A stretch of 64,000 bases of DNA from Candidatus Saccharimonadota bacterium (GCA_027459325.1 DAIDIO010000002.1:1951-65950), one strand, 5' to 3'. Counted from the stretch's first letter, positions 7,488 through 48,500 are shown. The notes: a model not told the origin generated them from the sequence alone. Made by a program: numbers and translations.

Positions 7488-8045
7488 ATGGCAAACAAAA
7501 ACCAAGCCAACGTCTACGCTTTCATTGACAGTCAGAATTTAAATCTTGGTACACAGCGCATGGGGTGGAAGCTTGACTGGCGACGTTTCCGTCAGTATCT
7601 GCATGATAAATACGGCGTTACCAAAGCCTATATGTTTATAGGCTACATGAGTGAGAATGAATCACTCTATGAATATATGCATGAGCTTGGTTACTTAGTG
7701 GTGCTGAAGCCGACAATTGATGTAATGAATCCCGAAGGCCGGGAAGAGCAAAACGGTCACCACGAGGAACGCGAAAAACCAATGGTTAAAGGCAATGTTG
7801 ATGCTGAATTGGTGCTTTATGCCATGAAAGAGCAGCCAAATTACGATAAAGCGATTATTGTTTCCGGAGATGGCGATTTTTATAGTTTAATCGAATATCT
7901 TGATGAAGCTGGACGGCTTGACTGTGTTATGGCTCCCAACTGGCAATACTCAAGCTTGCTTAAACCTTTTGAGGATAAGATTGTTAGGTTAGATAAATTA
8001 CGACGTAAACTCGCTTATCATGATAAAAAAAGAGTAGTTAAGTAG
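7488..8045 (+). CDS. NYN-domain (LabA-like) putative RNase
   Basis: Contains FIDSQNL and VSGDGDF motifs. Confidence 0.7.
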   Translation: MANKNQANVYAFIDSQNLNLGTQRMGWKLDWRRFRQYLHDKYGVTKAYMFIGYMSENESLYEYMHELGYLVVLKPTIDVMNPEGREEQNGHHEEREKPMVKGNVDAELVLYAMKEQPNYDKAIIVSGDGDFYSLIEYLDEAGRLDCVMAPNWQYSSLLKPFEDKIVRLDKLRRKLAYHDKKRVVK

Positions 8046-8695: not shown

Positions 8696-10009
8696 TTAGT
8701 ATAGACCCAAGCAGGCTATAGCCTTTTTTGCGATCTTGCTTGGCGTGGAAGGGTGCTTGTTCAAGTAAATCGCCATTCTATAAATTCTAATTAATCGTTT
8801 TGTTTCATCTTCCCAATTCCGGCCTTCCGCGAATTGTCGGCCGTTTTCTCCTAAGCTAAATCTTAGCTTAGGGTTGTTGATTAATCTGGTTACGACATCT
8901 TTCAGTTGTTCTGCGGTTTCATACTTTAGCCCATTCACACCTTCCTCTACCAGCTGAATAAAGGCGCCTTTATCTGGAGTTACTACTGGCAGGCCAGCAG
9001 CTAAGCCTTCGAATAATACTTGGGAATAGGATTCTGTTTCACTTGTTAAGACCATGATGTCGCCGTTAGAGTAGGCGTCAGCCAGTTCTTCGCCTCTGAG
9101 CATGCCAGTAATTACTGCACCCGGTAGCAATTGTTCCAGGTTTTGTCTTTCAGGGCCATCACCAACCAGGACAATTTTTGAGTTAGGTAGGTCCTCAATA
9201 TCTTTTAGTTTACTTAAACTCTTCTCGGCTGCCAGTCTACCCGGCACTAATATTACTAGCTCGTCGTCTTTTATGCCCCACGCTTGACGCTGTTTAATAG
9301 CATCGGGCCGGTATCGTCTTTCGGGATTAAACATAGGGTCAACACCATTAGCAAGTCTAACAAGGGTATCTTTTGAAACTTGTTCTCTTTCGAGAATATA
9401 TTCATCCATAGCAATAGACGGGGAATAGTTAATATCTGCTCGTCCATGCATCCGGTTTTCTTGTCTTTTTACGAAACTGTCTATTATTGGAGCGCCTGGT
9501 AAAAACAGCTTGGGGATCATGTTTCTGGCGATGAATCGGTTAAAAGATTGTGCTCCGGCAACAATAGGTAAGTGGTGATCGTAAGCCATATCTATGACGC
9601 TGCCTCCTAGAAAAAATAAGCCAAATGGTCCTCTCATCGGGGTTGCTGCGTGGACTACGTCGAAATTACCGTCACTCAACATCTTACTAAAGCTTATTGC
9701 CGGACGTAGTATGCTAAGTTGAAAGTTTCGAATGGGCAAATAGCCTGTTTCTATGACTTTTGCTCCACCTAAAGGCCCATGTATAGCTTTATCATAATCG
9801 GGTAGTAAGATGGTCAGTTCATGCTGTGCTTCGGTCAGCAGCGGTGCGGTATACATAAGTTTATTGACCGGGCCTGATATAACCGAACTTTCATTGGCCC
9901 ATAGTATTTTTAACTTTTCCGGTTGGTCACTGAATAGCTGTTCCTCAACACGGTTAATAGTAGCATCCTCGCTTACCGGGAAATTCTCTGTAATCATCAG
10001 AAACAACAT
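8696..10009 (-). CDS. glycosyltransferase family 4 (GT-B)
   Basis: The C-terminal half shows the Glycos_transf_1 pattern (SETESYSQVLFEGLAAGLPVV). Confidence 0.75.
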   Translation of the reverse strand: MLFLMITENFPVSEDATINRVEEQLFSDQPEKLKILWANESSVISGPVNKLMYTAPLLTEAQHELTILLPDYDKAIHGPLGGAKVIETGYLPIRNFQLSILRPAISFSKMLSDGNFDVVHAATPMRGPFGLFFLGGSVIDMAYDHHLPIVAGAQSFNRFIARNMIPKLFLPGAPIIDSFVKRQENRMHGRADINYSPSIAMDEYILEREQVSKDTLVRLANGVDPMFNPERRYRPDAIKQRQAWGIKDDELVILVPGRLAAEKSLSKLKDIEDLPNSKIVLVGDGPERQNLEQLLPGAVITGMLRGEELADAYSNGDIMVLTSETESYSQVLFEGLAAGLPVVTPDKGAFIQLVEEGVNGLKYETAEQLKDVVTRLINNPKLRFSLGENGRQFAEGRNWEDETKRLIRIYRMAIYLNKHPSTPSKIAKKAIACLGLY

Positions 10010-10109
10010 ATGTCAAAATGTAGCCATCTGTCAAATTATAACTCCCAGAATCTACCACGAAAATTTATCTTAATTTGGGAAAGGGAAATACCGGCAGTGA
10101 GGGGTCTAA

Positions 10110-33771: not shown

Positions 33772-33846
33772 GGCCTCATCGTCTAGCGGCTAGGACACTG
33801 GGTTCTCATCCCAGCAACCGGAGTTCGATTCTCCGTGAGGTCACCA
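33772..33846 (+). tRNA. tRNA-Glu (anticodon CUC), CCA encoded
   Basis: Cloverleaf by eye: acceptor GGCCTCA/TGAGGTC, anticodon stem CTGGG/CCCAG with loop TTCTCAT, and T-arm GGAGTTCGATTCTCC. Confidence 0.9.
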
Positions 33847-33881
33847 TAGGAAACTTACAGATAAGTTTTGATTATAAATTT
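33839..33881 (+). repeat. att-like repeat, copy 0 (tRNA-Glu 3' end plus 35 nt downstream)
   Basis: The 43 nt GGTCACCATAGGAAACTTACAGATAAGTTTTGATTATAAATTT are identical to 34623-34665. Confidence 0.9.
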
Positions 33882-33952
33882 TAGACATACAAGTTGATTG
33901 TCAATTCTGATTTGTTAAGTAGTTCAATTCAGCTCAGCGCATAATCGCAGAT

Positions 33953-33982
33953 TTGACATAAACGTACAACTAACTGTACAAT
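33953..33982 (+). promoter_or_regulatory. promoter and GTACA-N6-TGTAC operator-like inverted repeat of TA cassette 1
   Basis: TTGACA (33953-33958), an 18-nt spacer, then TACAAT (33977-33982). The inverted repeat GTACA (33964-33968)/TGTAC (33975-33979) overlaps the -10 element. Confidence 0.5.
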
Positions 33983-34006
33983 AGAAATGTAATAAAAGGA
34001 TAACCC

Positions 34007-34264
34007 ATGAGTACAAAGACTATCGACGCAACAGATTTACGCAACAATCTATCCGCAACCATTAGCACTTTAGGAAAGGACGACATCTTGTTTATTAAGA
34101 GCCGAGGCAAACTTACAGGTAAAGCTATCATTGATGATGAGTTGCTCGAGGACTTACTCTTGCTAAAAGATGGTGAATATATCGCTGACATTGCCAGGGC
34201 GCGGGAAGAGATAAAGCAAGGTAATATTTACACGTTTAATGAGGTTTTTGGAGACGTTTTGTAA
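34007..34264 (+). CDS. Phd/YefM-family antitoxin
   Basis: 85 aa with a typical N-terminus (TIDATDLRNNLSATI). Its stop overlaps the toxin start (TAATG). Confidence 0.8.
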   Translation: MSTKTIDATDLRNNLSATISTLGKDDILFIKSRGKLTGKAIIDDELLEDLLLLKDGEYIADIARAREEIKQGNIYTFNEVFGDVL

Positions 34265-34527
34265 TGACTCCCTACCGCATAGTGTTTGCGGGTAGTAGCA
34301 AGAAGGATTTAGATAAACTTGACCGAGTTACGCGGCAGCGAATTGCTAAGAAACTCCAGTATTTCTTAGAGCAAGAAAACCCGCTAGTTTATGCCCGTCA
34401 ATTAGTCCACTCGAATATAGGCAGCTATCGCTTTCGAGTTGGTCACTATCGCATAGTATTTGATGTAAAAGGTCATACACTTCAGGTAGTAAGCATTAAG
34501 CACAGAAAAGATGTATATAAAGGCTAG
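34264..34527 (+). CDS. RelE/ParE-family toxin
   Basis: 87 aa with the YRFRVGHYRIVFDV...HRKDVY pattern. Confidence 0.8.
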   Translation: MTPYRIVFAGSSKKDLDKLDRVTRQRIAKKLQYFLEQENPLVYARQLVHSNIGSYRFRVGHYRIVFDVKGHTLQVVSIKHRKDVYKG

Positions 34528-34603
34528 GGTTTTACTTTAGCTTAGATTATTTCTCAAACCTTGAGTAGCATGTTCCATCTAATAATTTCTCCAGTCAATA
34601 ACG

Positions 34604-34665
34604 TATAAACCGAATGGTCTAGGGTCACCATAGGAAACTTACAGATAAGTTTTGATTATAAATTT
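34604..34665 (+). repeat. cassette-end element E1
   Basis: TATAAACCGAATGGTCTAGGGTCACCA plus 35 nt identical to the sequence downstream of tRNA-Glu. Confidence 0.9.
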
Positions 34666-34753
34666 CTGTAACTTGGGACTTTTCTCCAAGTGAATACAAG
34701 GCCAAAATTAACGCTTAAGAACCAGCCTCGATGTATTCGGCCACTACAGACTA

Positions 34754-34782
34754 TTGACACTAGGGTTAACTTAAGTTAAACT
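34754..34782 (+). promoter_or_regulatory. promoter plus 14-nt perfect palindrome of TA cassette 2 (leaderless layout)
   Basis: TTGACA (34754-34759), a 17-nt spacer, then TAAACT (34777-34782). The palindrome TTAACTTAAGTTAA (34766-34779) lies in the spacer. The ATG at 34789 falls at the expected transcription start and has no SD. Confidence 0.5.
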
Positions 34783-34788
34783 TGAATT

Positions 34789-35055
34789 ATGAAGACAATT
34801 GGCGCAAAAGATTTAAGACAAAATATGGATGAAGTGCTTGACCGTGTAATAAGTGGTGAGGACATCATTGTCCAGCATCGTTTTAAAAAGCCCGTGCGCT
34901 TGAGCGCCCTTAACACTTTGGCTAATAAGAACCGCCAAAAGCTTGCTGGTCTTAAAGCATTTGAGAAGGCTCCCAAACAACCTTCTTCGTTTAATTCCAG
35001 TAAGACTGTTAAAGAGCTTTACCATGAATCTATCTCTGACAAGTACGCAAGCTAG
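34789..35055 (+). CDS. Phd/YefM-like antitoxin (VapB role)
   Basis: N-terminus reads MKTIGAKDLRQNMDEVLDRV. It overlaps the PIN toxin gene. Confidence 0.6.
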   Translation: MKTIGAKDLRQNMDEVLDRVISGEDIIVQHRFKKPVRLSALNTLANKNRQKLAGLKAFEKAPKQPSSFNSSKTVKELYHESISDKYAS

Positions 35056-35434
35056 TAGTGTTTTTCTAGATGCCAATATAGTTCTTGAAATTATCCTAGA
35101 ACGACAAAACCAGCAATTGGCTAAAGAGTTGTTATATAAATATAGTGACAACTTGAATATCTCCTCATTAACTGCGCACCTCATTACATATTTTGGCCAG
35201 AAACGAGTTGATTTACCTGTGTTAAGGAGTTTTTTAGCGGACTACATTGTTCTCTCACTAGACTCCGAAGATTTTGAATGGGCGTTTAACAACATACGAA
35301 ATAATGATTTCGAAGACGCACTTCAACTTAGCATAGCAATAAGAAATGGTTGCAATAGTTTTATTACCTTTGATAAACAACTAGTTGATACCTACGCTAA
35401 CCTAAAAAATATTTCTATTCAGTTGCTCTCTTAA
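35024..35434 (+). CDS. vapC: PIN-domain toxin VapC
   Basis: I prefer the internal ATG at 35024 (MNLSLTS...). VFLDANIVLE (first acidic PIN residue) and later D/E positions are present. The track start at 34943 would overlap most of the antitoxin. Confidence 0.72.
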   Translation: MNLSLTSTQASSVFLDANIVLEIILERQNQQLAKELLYKYSDNLNISSLTAHLITYFGQKRVDLPVLRSFLADYIVLSLDSEDFEWAFNNIRNNDFEDALQLSIAIRNGCNSFITFDKQLVDTYANLKNISIQLLS

Positions 35435-35473
35435 GCGTTACGTTCCAACGTATTATCTCTATCAGGATAAGCG

Positions 35474-35534
35474 TATAAACCTAATGGTCGAAGGTCACCA
35501 GAGAAATCTTACAGATGAGAATTGGTTATAAATT
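35474..35534 (+). repeat. cassette-end element E2
   Basis: TATAAACCTAATGGTCGAAGGTCACCA, followed by a tail about 76 percent identical to that of E1. Confidence 0.8.
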
Positions 35535-35612
35535 ACGAATTTAATTGTTTGTAACCACACCAGTTCTTAACTCTCATGCATCATCCAGCGCATTATTTCA
35601 ACCACCATAGAC

Positions 35613-35632
35613 TTATAAACCGAGTGGCCTAG
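35613..35632 (+). repeat. partial cassette-end element E3
   Basis: TATAAACCGAGTGGCCTAGG, lacking the GGTCACCA terminus. Confidence 0.6.
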
Positions 35633-35648
35633 GATTAGCAATATCATA

Positions 35649-35677
35649 TTGACATTTTTATACCACTTTGATACTAT
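35649..35677 (+). promoter_or_regulatory. promoter of TA cassette 3 (leaderless layout)
   Basis: TTGACA (35649-35654), a 17-nt spacer, then TACTAT (35672-35677). The ATG at 35684 lies 7 nt after the -10 element. Confidence 0.5.
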
Positions 35678-35683
35678 TAAATT

Positions 35684-35965
35684 ATGACTACAAAACTACA
35701 AGTGCCTATAGACACTAATGTAAGAGACGGTCTTGAGCAGCGAGCCAAAGAACTTGGCTTTGATTCAGCTCAAGCATATATAAGATTTTGGGCAAAATCT
35801 GAAGTGGAAGGACGTAAAATTGATTTTGGCACTCCCATGGTCACTTTAAGTCCAGAGGCAGATAGCCGTTACGAAAAAGTTGTAGCGGATATGGCAAAGT
35901 TAAGAAAAACTGGAAAACTAAAGGCCTATTCGACAGTAGAAGAGTTCATGAAAGACCTTAAGTAG
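35684..35965 (+). CDS. antitoxin (RelB/DinJ- or RHH-like)
   Basis: 93 aa. Its stop overlaps the GTG start of the downstream toxin. Confidence 0.5.
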   Translation: MTTKLQVPIDTNVRDGLEQRAKELGFDSAQAYIRFWAKSEVEGRKIDFGTPMVTLSPEADSRYEKVVADMAKLRKTGKLKAYSTVEEFMKDLK

Positions 35966-36231
35966 TGAAACCTATATACAGAGATAAAAATTTTGAAAAG
36001 CACTTTAAGACCAGAATAACTCCCAATGATAATTTAGTTAAACAGTTTGAGCTAAGGTTAGCTATGTTTAGAGAGGGCGTCAGAGGCAAGCCTATTAATG
36101 ACCACGGCTTGAAAGGTAAAAAACGTATGTATAGAGCTTGGTCGGTTGCAGGAGATATTAGAGTGGTTTACCGTGAGACAGATGAATACTACGAGTTTCT
36201 AGATATTGGCTCTCACAACCAGGTTTATTAA
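35965..36231 (+). CDS. YafQ/RelE-type mRNA interferase toxin
   Basis: 88 aa with the F.K.FK...L...PL....DH.L.G....R...V..D.R..Y pattern. Confidence 0.68.
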   Translation: MKPIYRDKNFEKHFKTRITPNDNLVKQFELRLAMFREGVRGKPINDHGLKGKKRMYRAWSVAGDIRVVYRETDEYYEFLDIGSHNQVY

Positions 36232-36289
36232 GCTGAATAGCCTAGGTTTAGTGTTCTATTCCACCGAATAATTTCGCCTGCCAAAGCCT

Positions 36290-36316
36290 TATAAATCGAG
36301 CGGTCTAGGGTCACCA
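36290..36316 (+). repeat. cassette-end element E4
   Basis: Sequence is TATAAATCGAGCGGTCTAGGGTCACCA. Confidence 0.8.
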
Positions 36317-36458
36317 AGAAAGAGTTTTCAGTTTATGCTCAAATTTTACTCTTCTTGTCCGTTTTTTTAAAATTCTAAAGATGCCTACCTCAAGCGGTGT
36401 TTTAAATCAATTTCATCTGTAAAATATTTCGATTCACTATAATGTTAGTATAGTTATT

Positions 36459-37115
36459 ATGAGTGAACGTAGAGCAGAAATTGCTGACTTGTATTATCGA
36501 ACTAACTCGGTGCGATTCGGAGCATTTAGATTATCTGTTCATATAGATAATCCAAACTTACCTTTGTCGCCTTACTATTTGCATTACCCTGAACCTGGAG
36601 AGCCAGGGAGTGAATTACTACCAAAACTTTACCACTTAATAGGGCAAGAGTTCTTTACGATATGCGAATCAAAAGGATTCAGACCAAAACGCATAGCTGG
36701 TGTACCGAAAGGAGCATTGCCACTAGCTGATGCGCACGCAAGGCATTATGAGAATTATCCCTATAACCTGCTGACTTTCACGAAAGCCGAAGAACCTGGT
36801 AAAACTACCTTTATTGGTCCCGATGGAGAGTTTAGTGAAGGCGAAGAACTGATAATTGATGAAGACCATACATCTGGTGGACGTAATAAGAAATTAATCC
36901 GCGCAGCAGCGGTTTCAGGTGGTTTAGTTGTTCCAAATATGTTGACAGTTGTAGATAGACAGCAAGGAGGGGTTGAAAATATGGCGCGAGAAGGCACCAG
37001 ACTATTGGCCATATTCACTATCGATGAATTGCTGCAATTTGGAACTGATTTTGGATACGCAACTCAAACGCAGGCTGACGCAGCAAAGGAATACTGGAAT
37101 CTAAATCAGTACTAA
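36459..37115 (+). CDS. type I phosphoribosyltransferase, orotate-PRTase (PyrE)-like
   Basis: Contains VRFGAFRLS....LSPYY and the PRPP loop ELIIDEDHTSGG. Confidence 0.65.
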   Translation: MSERRAEIADLYYRTNSVRFGAFRLSVHIDNPNLPLSPYYLHYPEPGEPGSELLPKLYHLIGQEFFTICESKGFRPKRIAGVPKGALPLADAHARHYENYPYNLLTFTKAEEPGKTTFIGPDGEFSEGEELIIDEDHTSGGRNKKLIRAAAVSGGLVVPNMLTVVDRQQGGVENMAREGTRLLAIFTIDELLQFGTDFGYATQTQADAAKEYWNLNQY

Positions 37116-37127
37116 ATCTTATGCAGA

Positions 37128-37388
37128 TTACTTTTTATATACATCCTTGCGGTGTTGAACCCTATGGAGCTTAATTTTGTCACTATCTACATCAAAAATT
37201 AACCTATAATTATCAACTCGGAAGCGATAATCTCCACCACTAGAATCTACTAGTTTCTTAGCAAACGATAGTGGATCAGTTTGATCTAAAAAAAATTTGA
37301 TTTTTTTGGCTATTCTTTTTTGAGCTATGCTGTCCAGTGATTGAATATCTTTCTTTGCTTGACTCTCAATTACCAATTGGTACTTCAT
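37128..37388 (-). CDS. RelE/ParE-family toxin (paralog of 34264..34527)
   Basis: YRFRVDNYRLIFDV...HRKDVY pattern. I prefer the ATG at 37388, which overlaps the antitoxin stop as TAATG exactly as in cassette 1. The track start at 37400 is a TTG. Confidence 0.8.
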   Translation of the reverse strand: MKYQLVIESQAKKDIQSLDSIAQKRIAKKIKFFLDQTDPLSFAKKLVDSSGGDYRFRVDNYRLIFDVDSDKIKLHRVQHRKDVYKK

Positions 37389-37642
37389 TAGTCTACCCAA
37401 AGATCACCAAATACTTCTTCAGGCGAGTACCATTCTTTGCTGGCACGAGCTTTAGCTATCGACTCTACATATTCAGGGTCTTGTACAGCCAGCAGATCTT
37501 CTAAAGTATCTATATCAATGAGTGCGGATTCAACTTTGCCGTGTCGCTTAACAAGAACTATATTTTTATTGTCATGAACAGCATCTAATACTTCAGACAG
37601 GTGTTTTCGCATTACCGATGCATCTATTGTTTGAGTGCCCAT
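37388..37642 (-). CDS. Phd/YefM-family antitoxin (paralog of 34007..34264)
   Basis: Reads MGTQTIDASVMRKHLSEVLDAV. GTAC-containing repeats lie upstream at 37655-37700. Confidence 0.8.
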   Translation of the reverse strand: MGTQTIDASVMRKHLSEVLDAVHDNKNIVLVKRHGKVESALIDIDTLEDLLAVQDPEYVESIAKARASKEWYSPEEVFGDLWVD

Positions 37643-37773
37643 CTTGTATCCTTTGTACTATTTAATATTACGTTAATATTGTACAAAAATATAGTACGAA
37701 TTGTCCATGCTTTACCTCTATATTGTGCTGTTGTGAAAAGTAAAGCCGATGAGCTAGGCCAGATGTATGCCTT

Positions 37774-38097
37774 TTAAATGCCTTTCATGCCAACGAGAGT
37801 CCATCGACTACCGTCTAGGCGAAGACGGTATAGAACTTGCCCGTCGCTAACGTCAAAGAGCTTGACTAATTTATCCTTCTTATTAATCAGATATCTTAAA
37901 CCTTCTTCAAGGAAGTTGTACTCCCGACCCTCGTAAACCATTCTTTTTGGGTAACTTTCTATACCCTTTTTACTGTTACGAAAATAAACTGAAGTTACTT
38001 CGATTTCCTGATTTGAAAATGAGTTAATAGTCATAATATTGTCCCCTACCCTTTTAGAATTATTAATACAAAGAGAAATTCGCTTCCTAATGTTCAA
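37774..38097 (-). CDS. hypothetical protein
   Basis: 107-aa ORF (possibly starting at the internal Met, MTINSF...). No motif recognised. Confidence 0.3.
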   Translation of the reverse strand: MNIRKRISLCINNSKRVGDNIMTINSFSNQEIEVTSVYFRNSKKGIESYPKRMVYEGREYNFLEEGLRYLINKKDKLVKLFDVSDGQVLYRLRLDGSRWTLVGMKGI

Positions 38098-38335
38098 AGA
38101 AGTGATAAACGGCTTTAAAATTAAGCTTTATGTAAGACTGGTCTAACACCTACCGTTTAAGAGGTTTTAGCTTTAATCGCCTTAAGCAAGCTGTTGATTT
38201 AAAGAAAGTAGGGACCGAAGTGTACTTTCCGTGGATAAGTTATAAGTCCGTAAGGTAAATTGGCCTTCCAAAGTCCTCGCGTGGCTAATATTTATTATAG
38301 AACGAGCCGTCAATAATAAACATAGTTTTTATGGT

Positions 38336-38725
38336 TTATTTGATGTTATCTATAAATGTTACTAGTTCGTGGGGTGTTAGTTCGGCTTTAACTAAATAGC
38401 CATCAGCTTGTTTCTCTATGTCCGCTCTAACATCTTCCCGTTGTTCTAGGTTAGTTATGATTAGTATCTTAGCTTTAATAGGGGGCACTCTGGCCGGGTC
38501 TCTAAGCTTTCTGAGGATTTCTATGCCGGTTAAATTAGGCACCATCAGGTCGAGCAGGATGATGTCGTAGGCATTAGTTTCAGCTTCTGTTAGCGCTTGA
38601 CTGCCGTCGGCGATTACAGTAACTTCATAACCGCCTTTACTTAGCGCCCTGGCGTAGAGTTCGCTTATGAAATGTTCGTCCTCTATACATAAAACTTTGC
38701 GGGTGGGTTGGTTGGTTTCTTGCAT
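38336..38725 (-). CDS. stand-alone response-regulator receiver protein
   Basis: Canonical CheY-like residues are present (CIEDE, DIILLDLMVP, ITN, YLVK). Confidence 0.85.
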   Translation of the reverse strand: MQETNQPTRKVLCIEDEHFISELYARALSKGGYEVTVIADGSQALTEAETNAYDIILLDLMVPNLTGIEILRKLRDPARVPPIKAKILIITNLEQREDVRADIEKQADGYLVKAELTPHELVTFIDNIK

Positions 38726-46434: not shown

Positions 46435-46522
46435 GGGCGAGTGGTGAAATTGGTATACACGCTAGACTCAAAATCTTGTGAGCTTAACGCTCGTGAGGGT
46501 TCAAGTCCCTCCTCGCCCACCA
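46435..46522 (+). tRNA. tRNA-Leu (anticodon CAA), long variable arm, CCA encoded
   Basis: Acceptor GGGCGAG/CTCGCCC, anticodon loop CTCAAAA, variable arm GAGCTTAACGCTC and T-arm GAGGGTTCAAGTCCCTC. Confidence 0.87.
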
Positions 46523-46545
46523 ATTTATTCTGTTCATTTTAAGTA

Positions 46546-47049
46546 TTACCAGGGGCATAAAGTAGTTTCGGTATCAGGGATTATCTCCTGACTGCCGTAA
46601 ATAAATGCATGGCTTGTCCAGAAAGCTATGCTGTCTGAATTGGCTTCTTTTGACTGCGGAAAAGGCTCATCATCATTGAATTTTCCTATCCAGGCGCTAG
46701 ATAATGTATAACTCGCGTCTTTATTTGGTACGAGGTGAACGGCAATGGTCTGGCAAAGGTCCCCGATCCTATTCTTTACAAATGGCACTAGGCCGTCATT
46801 TTCCCTGTTCTTTCGAACTGCGTAAACAATTTCATCTTTTTTGATTACTTCTACAACATCACACCGACCAATAACCCGGTGCCGGTCAAAGTGGTCAGCT
46901 ACCTCTTGCCCGGTTAATTCCAGGCTCGTTATAACTTCTTGCAGCAGCGGTGCTAGTTCGGGGTTGTCGTGAAGATGCGTAGCGGCATGGGAGTGAACTT
47001 CATCGTAGAATACCTTTATATGGTTTTTGGAAGTTGCTATTACCTTCAT
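46546..47049 (-). CDS. hypothetical protein
   Basis: 167 aa, lying 11 nt downstream of the multi-wHTH ORF. No motif recognised. Confidence 0.45.
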   Translation of the reverse strand: MKVIATSKNHIKVFYDEVHSHAATHLHDNPELAPLLQEVITSLELTGQEVADHFDRHRVIGRCDVVEVIKKDEIVYAVRKNRENDGLVPFVKNRIGDLCQTIAVHLVPNKDASYTLSSAWIGKFNDDEPFPQSKEANSDSIAFWTSHAFIYGSQEIIPDTETTLCPW

Positions 47050-47060
47050 ATTTTAATTAA

Positions 47061-48500
47061 TTAAGCTGTAGCTTCAAGGAAGTCTTTCGCTGGAACATCA
47101 TTATTTTCTATTTGCGATTTAAGTTCTCTCAAGCGGCCTATTTCTGCGTCAAAACCGGTTCTGCTGAGTTCAAAGAATTGCATATCAGCATATCGTTGGT
47201 TAAGATAGCTCTTCACATGGTAGTTGCCGCTAATTGATGCGAGCTCGCGACATTCGCCTAAAAGTTTATCTGCTTCAGCCGCTTCGTCTTCGCCGATTAC
47301 TTCTTCTAGCTCTCTTAACTCGTGCATTGCCCTTAACGCAAACTTTAGCCCCTCTCTAGTTAGTCTTAAATTGGTTAAAGTGTCTTTTAGTATACTTCCA
47401 TCTTTTCTGATTATTGCTTCTAAATACTTCTTGTTTTTTCTAAGCTCATAAATGCGCCGGGTAGCTGTATCTTCGGTAATATCTAATGCCCGGGCTATAT
47501 CAGGGATTATACCTTGGGTGTTATTTGGATGGGCTATCCAGTCGCTATAGAGAGGAAGGCTTGATTCGGCTGTAGTTTCATCGAAGTATATTCCGCTCAT
47601 AAACATTACATGCTCAATAATTCTAAGGCCGGTAGTCGCTCTTATTGGTTTCTCTTTCGGATCTTTAAGATAACTATGATAGGTTTTTAAAAGTGCAATA
47701 CGCTTTTCACCTGCTGGTGTTAAGACAATTACCTTTCGATCAAAGTCTACTGATACATAGCCATTTTTTTCCATGCTACCTAGTGATTTAGCATAAGAGT
47801 CATAACTAATATCGGCAGCTAAGCGCTTCCTGACTTCGGCAGCCGGGCTATCGCCTGTAAAGTATATAACGCCATTACATAGTTCTAATTCAGCAAATAT
47901 TTCTAGTATTCGGTAACCGGTTCGCTTAACAATTTTGACGTTGGCTTCATGCTGTATAAAATCAAGGCTGTCATCGGCTAGTAGGGGAAAGCCTTCAGGT
48001 TTAATTATCTTTTGAGGATAGGGGTATACTGGCTCATCCGTTTCCTCAATTTCATCTTTAGAAACCACTGGCGCTGATTTAGTTTGCCTGATCGTTTGCG
48101 TTGAGCGATCCATTAATATTTTTAGGGCTTCTGAGGTCAGTCGGTATCGAGGCCCACCATTCAGTGTAAGTCCGCGCTCAAGTGTACTTATAAGAAGATC
48201 TTGGAGCATTTCCGGAGATAATTTTTCTGACTCAGCCAAGCCTTTATTGGTAATCGCCTGTAGATAATTAATATAATGCTCATCGGTTTGCTTGAAGGTA
48301 CCAGCCAGTCCTATAGCCAGTAATAGTTTTATGCTTAGATCTTCTTTTGCAAAATCTGATCTTTCATAGGATTTATAAAAAAGCTTATCTTCTACCCTGA
48401 AGGTAAAATCTAATTCTCCTTCAGAAGGACGACTTTCATAGTCTAGATCAATTTCGTCTTCTAATGCCTCTTTGCGCCACTGGTTAAGTGGCGGTGTTCT
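47061..48500 (-). CDS. -1 frame portion of a multi-winged-helix orphan protein (the track ORF 47061..48239 starts at a TTG; this frame is open upstream to 48557)
   Basis: At least two MarR-like wHTH segments and a C-terminal coiled-coil. There is no ATG, GTG or TTG in the 106 open codons between the upstream in-frame stop (48558-48560) and 48239. Confidence 0.5.
   Translation of the reverse strand, partial: RTPPLNQWRKEALEDEIDLDYESRPSEGELDFTFRVEDKLFYKSYERSDFAKEDLSIKLLLAIGLAGTFKQTDEHYINYLQAITNKGLAESEKLSPEMLQDLLISTLERGLTLNGGPRYRLTSEALKILMDRSTQTIRQTKSAPVVSKDEIEETDEPVYPYPQKIIKPEGFPLLADDSLDFIQHEANVKIVKRTGYRILEIFAELELCNGVIYFTGDSPAAEVRKRLAADISYDSYAKSLGSMEKNGYVSVDFDRKVIVLTPAGEKRIALLKTYHSYLKDPKEKPIRATTGLRIIEHVMFMSGIYFDETTAESSLPLYSDWIAHPNNTQGIIPDIARALDITEDTATRRIYELRKNKKYLEAIIRKDGSILKDTLTNLRLTREGLKFALRAMHELRELEEVIGEDEAAEADKLLGECRELASISGNYHVKSYLNQRYADMQFFELSRTGFDAEIGRLRELKSQIENNDVPAKDFLEATA

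Follow-up and report, generated by a model that had tools for sequence, protein, structure and literature searches.

A tRNA-Glu-anchored array of small toxin-antitoxin cassettes in a Candidatus Saccharimonadota genome and its probable origin in serine recombinase insertions

The stretch of DNA examined here, referred to as the window, is 64,000 nucleotides (nt) long and derives from a Candidatus Saccharimonadota bacterium (GCA_027459325.1 DAIDIO010000002.1:1951-65950); all coordinates are counted from its first letter. Within it a tRNA-Glu(CTC) gene is followed by three toxin-antitoxin units in tandem, every one of them closed by a conserved element finishing in GGTCACCA, the last 8 nt of the tRNA gene. 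This array, most likely an accumulation of small elements that a large serine recombinase (LSR) encoded outside the window has integrated at tRNA-Glu, is described here together with its counterparts in related genomes. Its parts are as follows, with copies of the element named E1 to E4 and open reading frames abbreviated as ORFs.

33772 to 33846, + strand: tRNA-Glu(CTC), identified by ARAGORN and Rfam.
33839 to 33846, + strand: the crossover core GGTCACCA, the last 8 nt of tRNA-Glu(CTC); predicted left half of the attachment site and anchor of the array.
33847 to 33930, + strand: right arm of cassette 1 (TAGGAAACTTACAGATAAGTTTTGATTATAAATTT...), belonging to a conserved family about 90 nt long; an exact copy of the opening 35 nt lies after E1.
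33953 to 34527, + strand: cassette 1 cargo, comprising a promoter-like site (33953-33982), an 85-aa ORF in antitoxin position (34007-34264) and a ParE/RelE toxin gene (34264-34527).
34554 to 34631, - strand: E1, a putative detached integrase-tail frame (MVTLDHSVYTLLTGEIIRWNMLLKV, then stop); the + strand element is 34567-34630 (nhmmer, 59 bits).
34631 to 34665, + strand: right arm of cassette 2, a short form of 35 nt; with the core it makes the 43-nt perfect repeat of 33839-33881.
34754 to 35434, + strand: cassette 2 cargo, comprising a promoter-like site (34754-34782), a Phd/YefM-like antitoxin gene (34789-35055) and a PIN (VapC-like) toxin gene (35024-35434).
35437 to 35500, + strand: E2, a putative integrase-tail fragment, degenerate, with the core intact (nhmmer, 45.6 bits).
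35501 to 35535, + strand: right arm after E2 (GAGAAATCTTACAGATGAGAATTGGTTATAAATTA), from repeat and arm comparisons.
35584 to 35633, + strand: E3, a putative integrase-tail fragment, truncated and without core (42.8 bits, model positions 10-59).
35649 to 36231, + strand: cassette 3 cargo, comprising a promoter-like site (35649-35677), a 93-aa ORF in antitoxin position (35684-35965) and a YafQ-like toxin gene (35965-36231).
36228 to 36317, - strand: E4, a putative integrase-tail frame, intact (LVTLDRSIYKALAGEIIRWNRTLNLGYSA, then stop), with core; the + strand element is 36252-36316 (62.4 bits).

The cargo is of the type II toxin-antitoxin kind, with small antitoxin and toxin genes adjoining each other and recognizable toxin domains. 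The first-pass annotation of this DNA had read the three pairs as phd-relE, phd-like/vapC and antitoxin/yafQ-like; Pfam bears out the toxins (ParE_toxin 2e-9, PIN 4e-8 and YafQ_toxin 9e-7, the last 0.4 bit below its cut-off), but among the antitoxins only that of cassette 2 is Phd/YefM-like, at a sub-threshold score (PhdYeFM 2e-5; 24.5 bits against a cut-off of 29.8), and the antitoxin-position ORFs of cassettes 1 (85 aa) and 3 (93 aa) had no match in the Pfam scan. Every unit does carry its own strong promoter-like site, as had been proposed, with the form TTGACA-17/18-TAnnnT and 10-11 of 12 positions matching (at 33953, 34754 and 35649). The G+C content of the cassette region, 0.36-0.40, is below that of most of the window (roughly 0.40-0.47). 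The reported lack of a recombinase also holds throughout the 64 kb: a motif screen of window ORFs of at least 80 aa gave no tyrosine or serine recombinase signature, Pfam gave no recombinase domain in ten window ORFs that could not be placed by eye, and tblastn found no LSR remnants in the window.

A 27-nt motif shared by the unit ends had been noticed at the outset, and it occurs exactly three times on the + strand (34604-34630, 35474-35500 and 36290-36316) and not once in 100 dinucleotide-preserving shuffles. Its final GGTCACCA is present seven times in the window, against 0.9 expected, and four times in register, three of those being preceded by a conserved left arm of 56 nt. Repeat finding and an nhmmer profile show that the conserved unit is longer than the motif, about 64 nt, and forms a four-copy family of 58-66 nt. 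The direct repeat around cassette 1 is perfect, as annotated (33839-33881 = 34623-34665, 43/43). Against it the tail behind E2 scores 35/43 (81%), or 27/35 (77%) with the core excluded, close to the 76 percent first given; E4, credited with the core only, has kept the core but retains a weak tail as well, and E3 is indeed a truncated copy lacking the core, although its position had been given one base off. Taken with 35501-35583, E3 represents what is left of a cassette junction that has been emptied or has decayed. The window elements are nearer to copies in other genomes (80-83% for E1 and E4, 70% for the degenerate E2) than to each other (62-74%), which argues for separate acquisitions rather than local duplication; the nearest relative of E4 is the element ahead of an OPRT-like cassette in the related locus L013.

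Two identities for the element were considered and rejected. As a decayed 3' part of tRNA-Glu it fails because a gapless alignment gives only scattered matches beyond the 8-nt core, and as an RNA element because Rfam returned only the three tRNAs of the window and folding showed no structure. E1-E4 have no hairpin potential with or without their tails (z from -0.8 to +1.3 against shuffles), and no inverted-repeat pair was found within the elements. The element is neither an attC-type hairpin, nor a terminator, nor a tRNA mimic, because it belongs to no Rfam family, folds at shuffle level, has no inverted repeat and has no likeness to the tRNA outside the core. A weak dyad read from the sequence, CTAGGGT-C-ACCATAG, appears to be centered on the core.

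These properties bear on two familiar kinds of array. The first-pass annotation had entertained an integron-like platform and an attC-like bulged hairpin. Spelled out, such a platform would have folded single-strand sites acted on in trans by a tyrosine integron integrase, as in clusters of attC sites lacking an integron integrase (CALINs). The likeness is one of superficial layout, with cassettes of about 0.8 kb, toxin-antitoxin cargo, conserved ends and no integrase nearby, and we give this reading almost no credence: the elements fold no better than shuffles, alone or with their right arms, they contain no inverted-repeat pair, the left arm codes for protein and, as shown below, is continuous with LSR genes, the cassettes have promoters of their own and, in relatives, cargo in both orientations, where integron cassettes mostly lack promoters and are co-oriented, and no IntI, attI or Pc was found, the head of the array being a tRNA gene. 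Displaced and decayed tRNA-Glu 3' halves left by tyrosine-integrase elements, the classical form of tRNA island, are slightly less improbable though still very much so. The scattered matches in the gapless alignment of tRNA and element could be so explained, and one related locus (L055) does have a partial tRNA-Glu copy (51 nt) that comes from an element of a different kind; however, only 8 nt are common to element and tRNA, the copies are far more like each other and LSR tails than the tRNA, and motif screens of ORFs from the window and from the related loci introduced below gave no tyrosine recombinase.

The left arm is protein-coding DNA under constraint at the amino-acid level. On the reverse strand, starting at the core, all copies read (M/L)-V-T-L-D-H-S-V/I-Y-K-x-L/I-A/V-x-E-I-I/L-R-W-N-x-x-L and close with a few variable residues and a stop; in E1 the start codons ATG GTG ACC are the core (34623-34630), and in E2 the reading is LVTFDH, an in-frame stop, then VYTLILIEIIRWN. 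Codons vary among copies where the residue is kept, with Arg as AGA, AGG, CGC, CGT or CGA and Leu as TTR or CTN, and for 63 distinct copies the ratio of nonsynonymous to synonymous polymorphism (pN/pS) comes to 0.57 in this frame, while the other two frames give 0.96 and 1.13. The start codons also vary (ATG, TTG, CTG, ATT), with no ribosome-binding site. A profile search of 5.8 billion proteins recovered the tail motif only in short ORFs (31-112 aa) and no long protein that starts with the peptide. Since only short ORFs were found, the idea was reversed and the peptide regarded as a C-terminal tail.

That tail is found on LSR genes. Locus L039 has the same left flank as the window, a histidine kinase gene and then tRNA-Glu-CTC, and directly adjoining this tRNA is a reverse-strand LSR gene, split by a frameshift, with Resolvase (2e-25) and Recombinase domains. 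Its frame crosses ATG GTG ACC and ends in the antisense of the tRNA (...AKNFA-MVT-SRGIEPRLPG, then stop). The island to which it belongs, 12.6 kb in length, contains a DnaD/RepO-like gene, a small resolvase as a second recombinase and a restriction-modification system of type III, and closes with an element in the same frame. Behind this element come a right arm of the family and a cassette, putatively HAD-like by eye, that recurs in L016. Because the island ends with an in-frame element, the integrase on an excised circle would end ...NFA-MVTLDHSIYKLIIAELNRW.... The same overlap of an LSR 3' end with tRNA-Glu(TTC) occurs in L053, L054 and L055, and most homologues of the L039 recombinase terminate in ...MVT(S/P)RG(I/F)EPRLPG or ...VTSRRIELRLPG. 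Four related loci thus have a reverse-strand LSR gene that adjoins attL and overlaps it at the 3' end; the window has none and holds integrase-less members only.

More direct is the behavior of LSR genes that are otherwise almost the same. Bodies 88-96% identical (P0036, P0037, P0038, P0041 and P0042) part ways exactly after ...LLQANNSV-(L/M)V(T/N). Beyond the core codons P0037 has LVTVNRSLYRVIAKEIIRWNEVLRG, a canonical tail scoring 32.8 bits against the tail profile; P0036, which is the L016 gene inside an array, has LVTPLHSNWKVICSEILRWCEVLNS (19 bits); P0041 and P0042 have antisense tRNA; and P0038 has something else again. (The context of the P0038 fragment, beside several insertion-sequence-type transposase genes on a 1.9-Mb contig, is uninformative.) The M-V-T frame is identical in LSR genes and element, and the integrase frame runs over the att core into the neighboring sequence. 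Near-identical bodies with tails swapped at the core indicate that attP sits within the 3' end of the integrase gene, with its exchange point in the core, and that the element is the detached tail, an integrase 3' end plus crossover core forming an attR-type junction. The tRNA 3'-end mimicry that first drew attention to these elements is thereby reduced to the 8-nt core, the remainder being, by this comparison, integrase coding sequence.

A second type of tail, with core GTGAAC and reading LVN..QVETLF..EYIEP, is fused to LSRs in L050 and L051 and stands free in the array of L003, and a third, VNHLTSNWNHILEDINQWY.., is present in P0039 and P0040; neither further copies of the element nor arms of the second type were found in the window. 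An exhaustive search with a near-full-length member as query placed 204 clusters in the LSR clade at E <= 1e-30, with a domain architecture of Resolvase, Recombinase and Zn ribbon. An antisense T-arm motif (G[IFLV]EP and relatives), in varied sequence, ends 96 of 126 full-length representatives (P0046-P0191), and many of those remaining end in an amphipathic tail, S/N-x-W-N-x-I-x-E-I/L. An intragenic attP at tRNA-type genes seems, from these predicted termini, to be a trait of the whole clade, and many different tRNA-type genes seem to be targeted across it.

The fusion of tail to recombinase also weighs on the idea that the element has an independent function, as a gene for a peptide of 25-40 aa or as a regulatory or terminator module of toxin-antitoxin cassettes, its identity with the tRNA end being coincidental. 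The coding-type constraint, the restriction of database matches to short ORFs (31-112 aa), and the promoter-like and palindromic features of the right arm are all compatible with such a role, which we nonetheless consider very improbable: LSR genes end, in frame, in this very peptide, the element also stands behind cargo that is not toxin-antitoxin and behind LSR islands of 4.5-12.6 kb, the start codons are variable and without a ribosome-binding site, and there is no terminator-like fold.

The first-pass annotation had called for a search of related genomes, and the element proves to be widespread. A scan for the exact motif with one genome per species returned 20 stretches, all from metagenome-assembled genomes and most titled Saccharibacteria or Saccharimonadales, and a metagenome scan returned 29 additional stretches. 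Arrays at tRNA-Glu(TTC or CTC) are present in at least 49 related loci, with differing cassette content at the same chromosomal site. Where the tRNA lies inside the fetched stretch, the element is always downstream of tRNA-Glu (TTC or CTC) and in the same orientation, at 0.6-1.7 kb in most loci and at 12.6 kb across the L039 island; profile searches count up to six copies in an array (for example L003, L004, L013, L016 and L044). The cargo of these loci appears to include toxin-antitoxin pairs, membrane proteins, and putative VOC, SRPBCC, NUDIX, ASCH, HAD, CYTH and 2H phosphoesterase-type genes, labels given by eye except for ParE-type pairs, with Pfam supporting NUDIX, CYTH and RHH/ParE, and it lies on either strand. 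Regular-expression screens of the ORFs of the 20 genome and 29 metagenome loci gave no tyrosine recombinase motif.

Presence and absence of cassettes between relatives can be followed directly. In the window, L011 and L013 both chromosomal flanks are common (Der-RluB-response regulator-histidine kinase-tRNA at left; response regulator-histidine kinase-401aa-GltX at right, the latter also shared by L012 and L015), and between them are 4.5, 2.6 and 6.7 kb, respectively, of differing cassettes. Repeated site-specific insertion at one tRNA attachment site, as first suggested, with breakpoints inside GGTCACCA, is supported. The cassette 1 module recurs in L004, L010, L013, L014 and L020 (74-83% protein identity) and the cassette 3 antitoxin/toxin pair in L014 (77-79%), and from genome to genome the same cassettes occupy differing ranks and lie behind either tRNA-Glu gene. 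One block, made up of right arm, promoter, 85-aa ORF and relE, has three different left neighbors: the tRNA in the window, an element with the first type of tail in L020 and one with the second type in L004, the homology starting at the core. The junction with the putative HAD-like cassette is separated from the tRNA by the island in L039 and follows another cassette in L016 (86% over 533 nt), which indicates that the tRNA-proximal junction was reused while an array already existed.

From these comparisons we propose the following mechanism. The (M/L)-V-T codons, ATG/TTG GTG ACC, are the reverse complement of the tRNA end GGTCACCA, and crossover would occur within them, at a dinucleotide inside the core. 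Integration beside the tRNA would split the integrase gene, so that its body stays on the tRNA side and reads into antisense tRNA (...MVTSRGIEPRLPG, then stop), while the last ~25 codons (VTLDHSVYKxLAxEIIRWNxxL) would remain, with the core, at the opposite end of the insert as an attR-type junction. A unit would then consist of right arm, promoter, toxin-antitoxin pair, integrase-tail fragment and core, units having been acquired separately, and the cassettes in the window would have been inserted by this LSR family. Units without integrase would be mobile only with an LSR from elsewhere, either by joint excision with a neighboring LSR element (accretion and cis-mobilization) or in trans.

Several observations weigh against this mechanism. 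Without an LSR gene or remnant in the 64 kb, the link to the window cassettes is a comparative one. Canonical serine integrases recombine attP with attB only, sites of about 40-50 bp exchanged at a central dinucleotide; for the tRNA junction to serve repeatedly, and for units without an integrase to be inserted, something beyond attP x attB is needed. The copies in the window show no gradient of age, E4, the farthest from the tRNA, being the best preserved. No circular or excised forms were found, a motif scan of viral contigs was without match, and the protein search found no long canonical-tail protein besides array-internal LSRs. The right arm shows no significant likeness to LSR 3' coding DNA past about the first 10 nt. 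Finally, homology between the first two types of tail had to be dropped, as the profile of the first misses the second; what is kept is positional equivalence and a near-identical core.

The same LSR scars could also make up a fossil array, in which the window cassettes are now fixed and immobile and the tails look conserved through recent arrival rather than function. This is a distinct possibility, if not one we favor. The E2 and E3 junctions are already decaying, with an in-frame stop in E2 and no core in E3, the junctions distal to E4 have been lost, no recombinase is present in the 64 kb, and relatives fuse the 85-aa ORF and relE to a putative 2H phosphoesterase-type (173-181 aa), CYTH (200), NUDIX (151) or SRPBCC (151) gene (by eye). 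The perfect 43-nt repeat around cassette 1 speaks against fixation, as do the open tail frames of E1 and E4, the pN/pS of 0.57 over 63 copies, and the recurrence of the same cassettes, from one genome to another, in varied ranks and behind either tRNA-Glu gene.

At the other extreme, the array might be a working serine-recombinase system of cassette capture, a functional parallel to the integron in which each cassette carries a spare integrase tail. An LSR landing by the tRNA would lose its tail and regain a working one from a co-excised cassette, and cassettes with a tail fragment encoding a working C-terminus would be picked up, shuffled and exported. We regard this as rather unlikely; if true, it would explain the amino-acid-level selection on tail fragments, and whether the tail is native or antisense-tRNA would decide which way recombination runs, with no need of a separate directionality factor.

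The closest described system to the LSR pile-up that we prefer appears, by analogy of architecture, to be the ssrA islands of Dehalococcoides (McMurdie et al. 2011, PMC3146451). These are tandem, lie downstream of ssrA and are bounded by a 20-bp repeat of ssrA's 3' end, with a conserved 15-bp motif, unlike ssrA, upstream of each repeat. Their serine recombinase DsiB (~540 aa) is encoded on the reverse strand beside attL, its 3' end always overlapping attL and reading into the RNA gene or the next island; there is a small second resolvase, DsiA; and fifteen islands without an integration module are proposed to be cis-mobilizable by accretion (PMC3146451). The authors conjectured that dsiB is complete only on the circle, or that an island downstream gives 'the requisite 3' gene fragment' (PMC3146451). 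The array in the window resembles these islands in its tandem units, its short repeat of an RNA-gene 3' end, the non-target motif just upstream and the streamlined genome, and related loci, though not the window, have the reverse-strand LSR overlapping attL, with a second small resolvase in L039. It differs in its target (tRNA-Glu, with two isoacceptor genes, against ssrA), host (Saccharibacteria against Chloroflexi), repeat length (8 nt against 20) and unit size (0.6-1.5 kb, often one promoter-bearing toxin-antitoxin pair, against multi-kb rdhA islands); constraint on tail fragments and tail swapping are documented here, whereas the 2011 paper only raised them as a possibility. Kinship to DsiB-type islands is set by architecture and not by recombinase sequence, and since the target differs this is at most a sister system.

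Other systems share fewer features. Tycheposons of Prochlorococcus, which mostly use tyrosine recombinases and in a minority large serine recombinases (Hackl et al., bioRxiv 10.1101/2020.12.28.424599), are likewise tRNA-anchored islands of a small genome, built by successive integrations in which newer elements push older ones inward, with remnants carrying repeated att fragments and broken integrases, and with defense or adaptation cargo; however, they leave partial tRNA copies, usually carry replication modules and far exceed 0.8 kb, and an integrase-tail fragment as repeat is not described there. Mx8 intP/intX (PMC6070905) and the SSV-type 'suicidal' integrases (PMC7253208) are tyrosine recombinases with attP inside the integrase frame and a tRNA target; once integrated, the integrase acquires a different 3' end (Mx8) or is split (SSV), and hybrid integrases arise from fragments of mixed origin, as here. 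The present recombinase is a serine one, and arrays of mini-cassettes without an integrase are not known from Mx8 or SSV. Integron arrays and CALINs have small single-function cassettes, conserved ends, common toxin-antitoxin cargo and a recombinase that may be absent locally, whereas here there is no attC hairpin, IntI, attI or shared Pc, the conserved end appears to be double-strand integrase coding DNA, and the anchor is a tRNA. The cis-mobilizable elements (CIMEs) of Streptococcus integrative and conjugative elements are integrase-less, have functional-looking att bounds, and leave with or helped by an integrase-bearing neighbor (cited in PMC3146451); they differ in their tyrosine integrases and conjugative partners, and mobility of the present cassettes is only proposed. 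In the literature consulted, a search combining Saccharibacteria or Patescibacteria with serine recombinase found nothing relevant on such arrays or recombinases.

The locus is a miniaturized Saccharibacteria variant of serine-recombinase island building at tRNA-Glu; it is not integron-like, and the undescribed capture mechanism first suspected gives way to an enzyme family that can be named, an LSR with a predicted attP in its own 3' end, and to an architecture already shown by the Dehalococcoides islands. What is new is the host group, the target gene, the very small size of the cassettes, the size of the LSR clade with apparent intragenic attP, and direct evidence of detached tails conserved as coding sequence and swapped between integrase bodies. 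Once the enzyme family and the logic of its attachment sites are named, a cassette array without a recombinase is no longer puzzling, and island building of the Dehalococcoides type extends, in miniature, to Saccharibacteria, reduced episymbionts in which the acquisition of toxin-antitoxin and defense genes is little known. The amino-acid conservation of the tail fragments supports the 2011 conjecture of an integrase completed by the neighboring island (PMC3146451). For the LSR clade, the natural targets would be conserved 3' ends of tRNA-type genes, giving predicted attB/attP pairs for a kind of enzyme much used in genome engineering, and the clade offers a natural test case of control of activity or direction by C-terminal tail swapping.

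The other conserved component, the right arm, is borne by every cassette (about 90 nt, TAGGAAAGTTACAGATAAGATTTGATTATAAATTT...) and also lies directly after tRNA-Glu in many genomes; the arm of cassette 1 is 81% identical to that behind the L039 island. Its derivation from a decayed copy of LSR 3' coding sequence was tried and dropped, local alignments being no better than shuffles (p = 0.1-0.75), with agreement over about the first 10 nt. It might instead be a P' or B' half-site; were it of the B' type, the tRNA junction would always be a true attB and the internal junctions attR-type, and LSR modules would come and go, excising at an internal junction and leaving cargo behind (accretion and cis-mobilization). 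Right arms (window 33847-33930; L009 5733-5802; L017 4751-4820) contain TTACAGATAAG, and in many loci an inverted copy, CTTATCTGTA, follows ~50 nt further on, around a TTATAAA box; to judge from its sequence the pair could bind a protein or belong to a promoter.

Beyond E4 the window contains the following features before the conserved chromosomal flank, which begins with a response regulator gene (38336-38725).

36317 to 38330, no strand assigned: probable decayed distal part of the variable region, with a weak right arm, a 218-aa gene, a ParE/Phd pair and a 107-aa ORF.
36459 to 37115: the 218-aa gene, OPRT-like by eye and without a Pfam match; a bounded cassette in L013 (72% identity).
37128 to 37642, - strand: second ParE/Phd pair, between E4 and the conserved flank.
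37774 to 38097, - strand: 107-aa ORF of no family, between E4 and the conserved flank.

An exact-protein look-up returned no record for the 218-aa product. Because this gene is bounded by elements in L013, the window's variable region probably reaches about 38.3 kb, its junctions there having decayed, and the features at 36459-38097 are probably older cassettes whose junctions have vanished.

We also note defense-type cargo in the LSR islands at tRNA-Glu, which besides the type III restriction-modification system of L039 comprises a ThsB-like TIR protein and an ImmA/XRE pair in L053 (6780-11314), and an AAA_21/SMC_N ATPase, a reverse transcriptase-protease fusion and YafQ/RelB in L054 (2597-10570). 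In L055 a full tRNA-Glu(TTC) (7928-8002) is followed by two genes and a 3'-partial copy (9968-10041, 51 nt identical) directly before a serine recombinase gene, which points to another kind of integrative element, with a long tRNA repeat, using the same tRNA. On three metagenome contigs of 47-51% G+C (L041, reverse strand; L045, 790-1060; L046, reverse strand) the element follows a RibD C-terminal-domain-like gene (by eye; the L056 counterpart is annotated RibD_C). These contigs are nearly identical for ~52 nt right of the core and then diverge completely, the point of divergence being a second insertion hot spot just past the core. L045 has a 724-aa transposase-like gene (TnsB-like by eye) and two large genes in a Tn7-like arrangement, and L046 has genes of 1799 and 1189 aa. 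Elsewhere in the window, tRNA-Leu(CAA) (46435-46522) is followed by two reverse-strand ORFs, one of 167 aa without a Pfam match and one of 392 aa with a weak winged-helix match; neither repeat nor recombinase was seen in this stretch (46435-48239), which could be a further small tRNA island.

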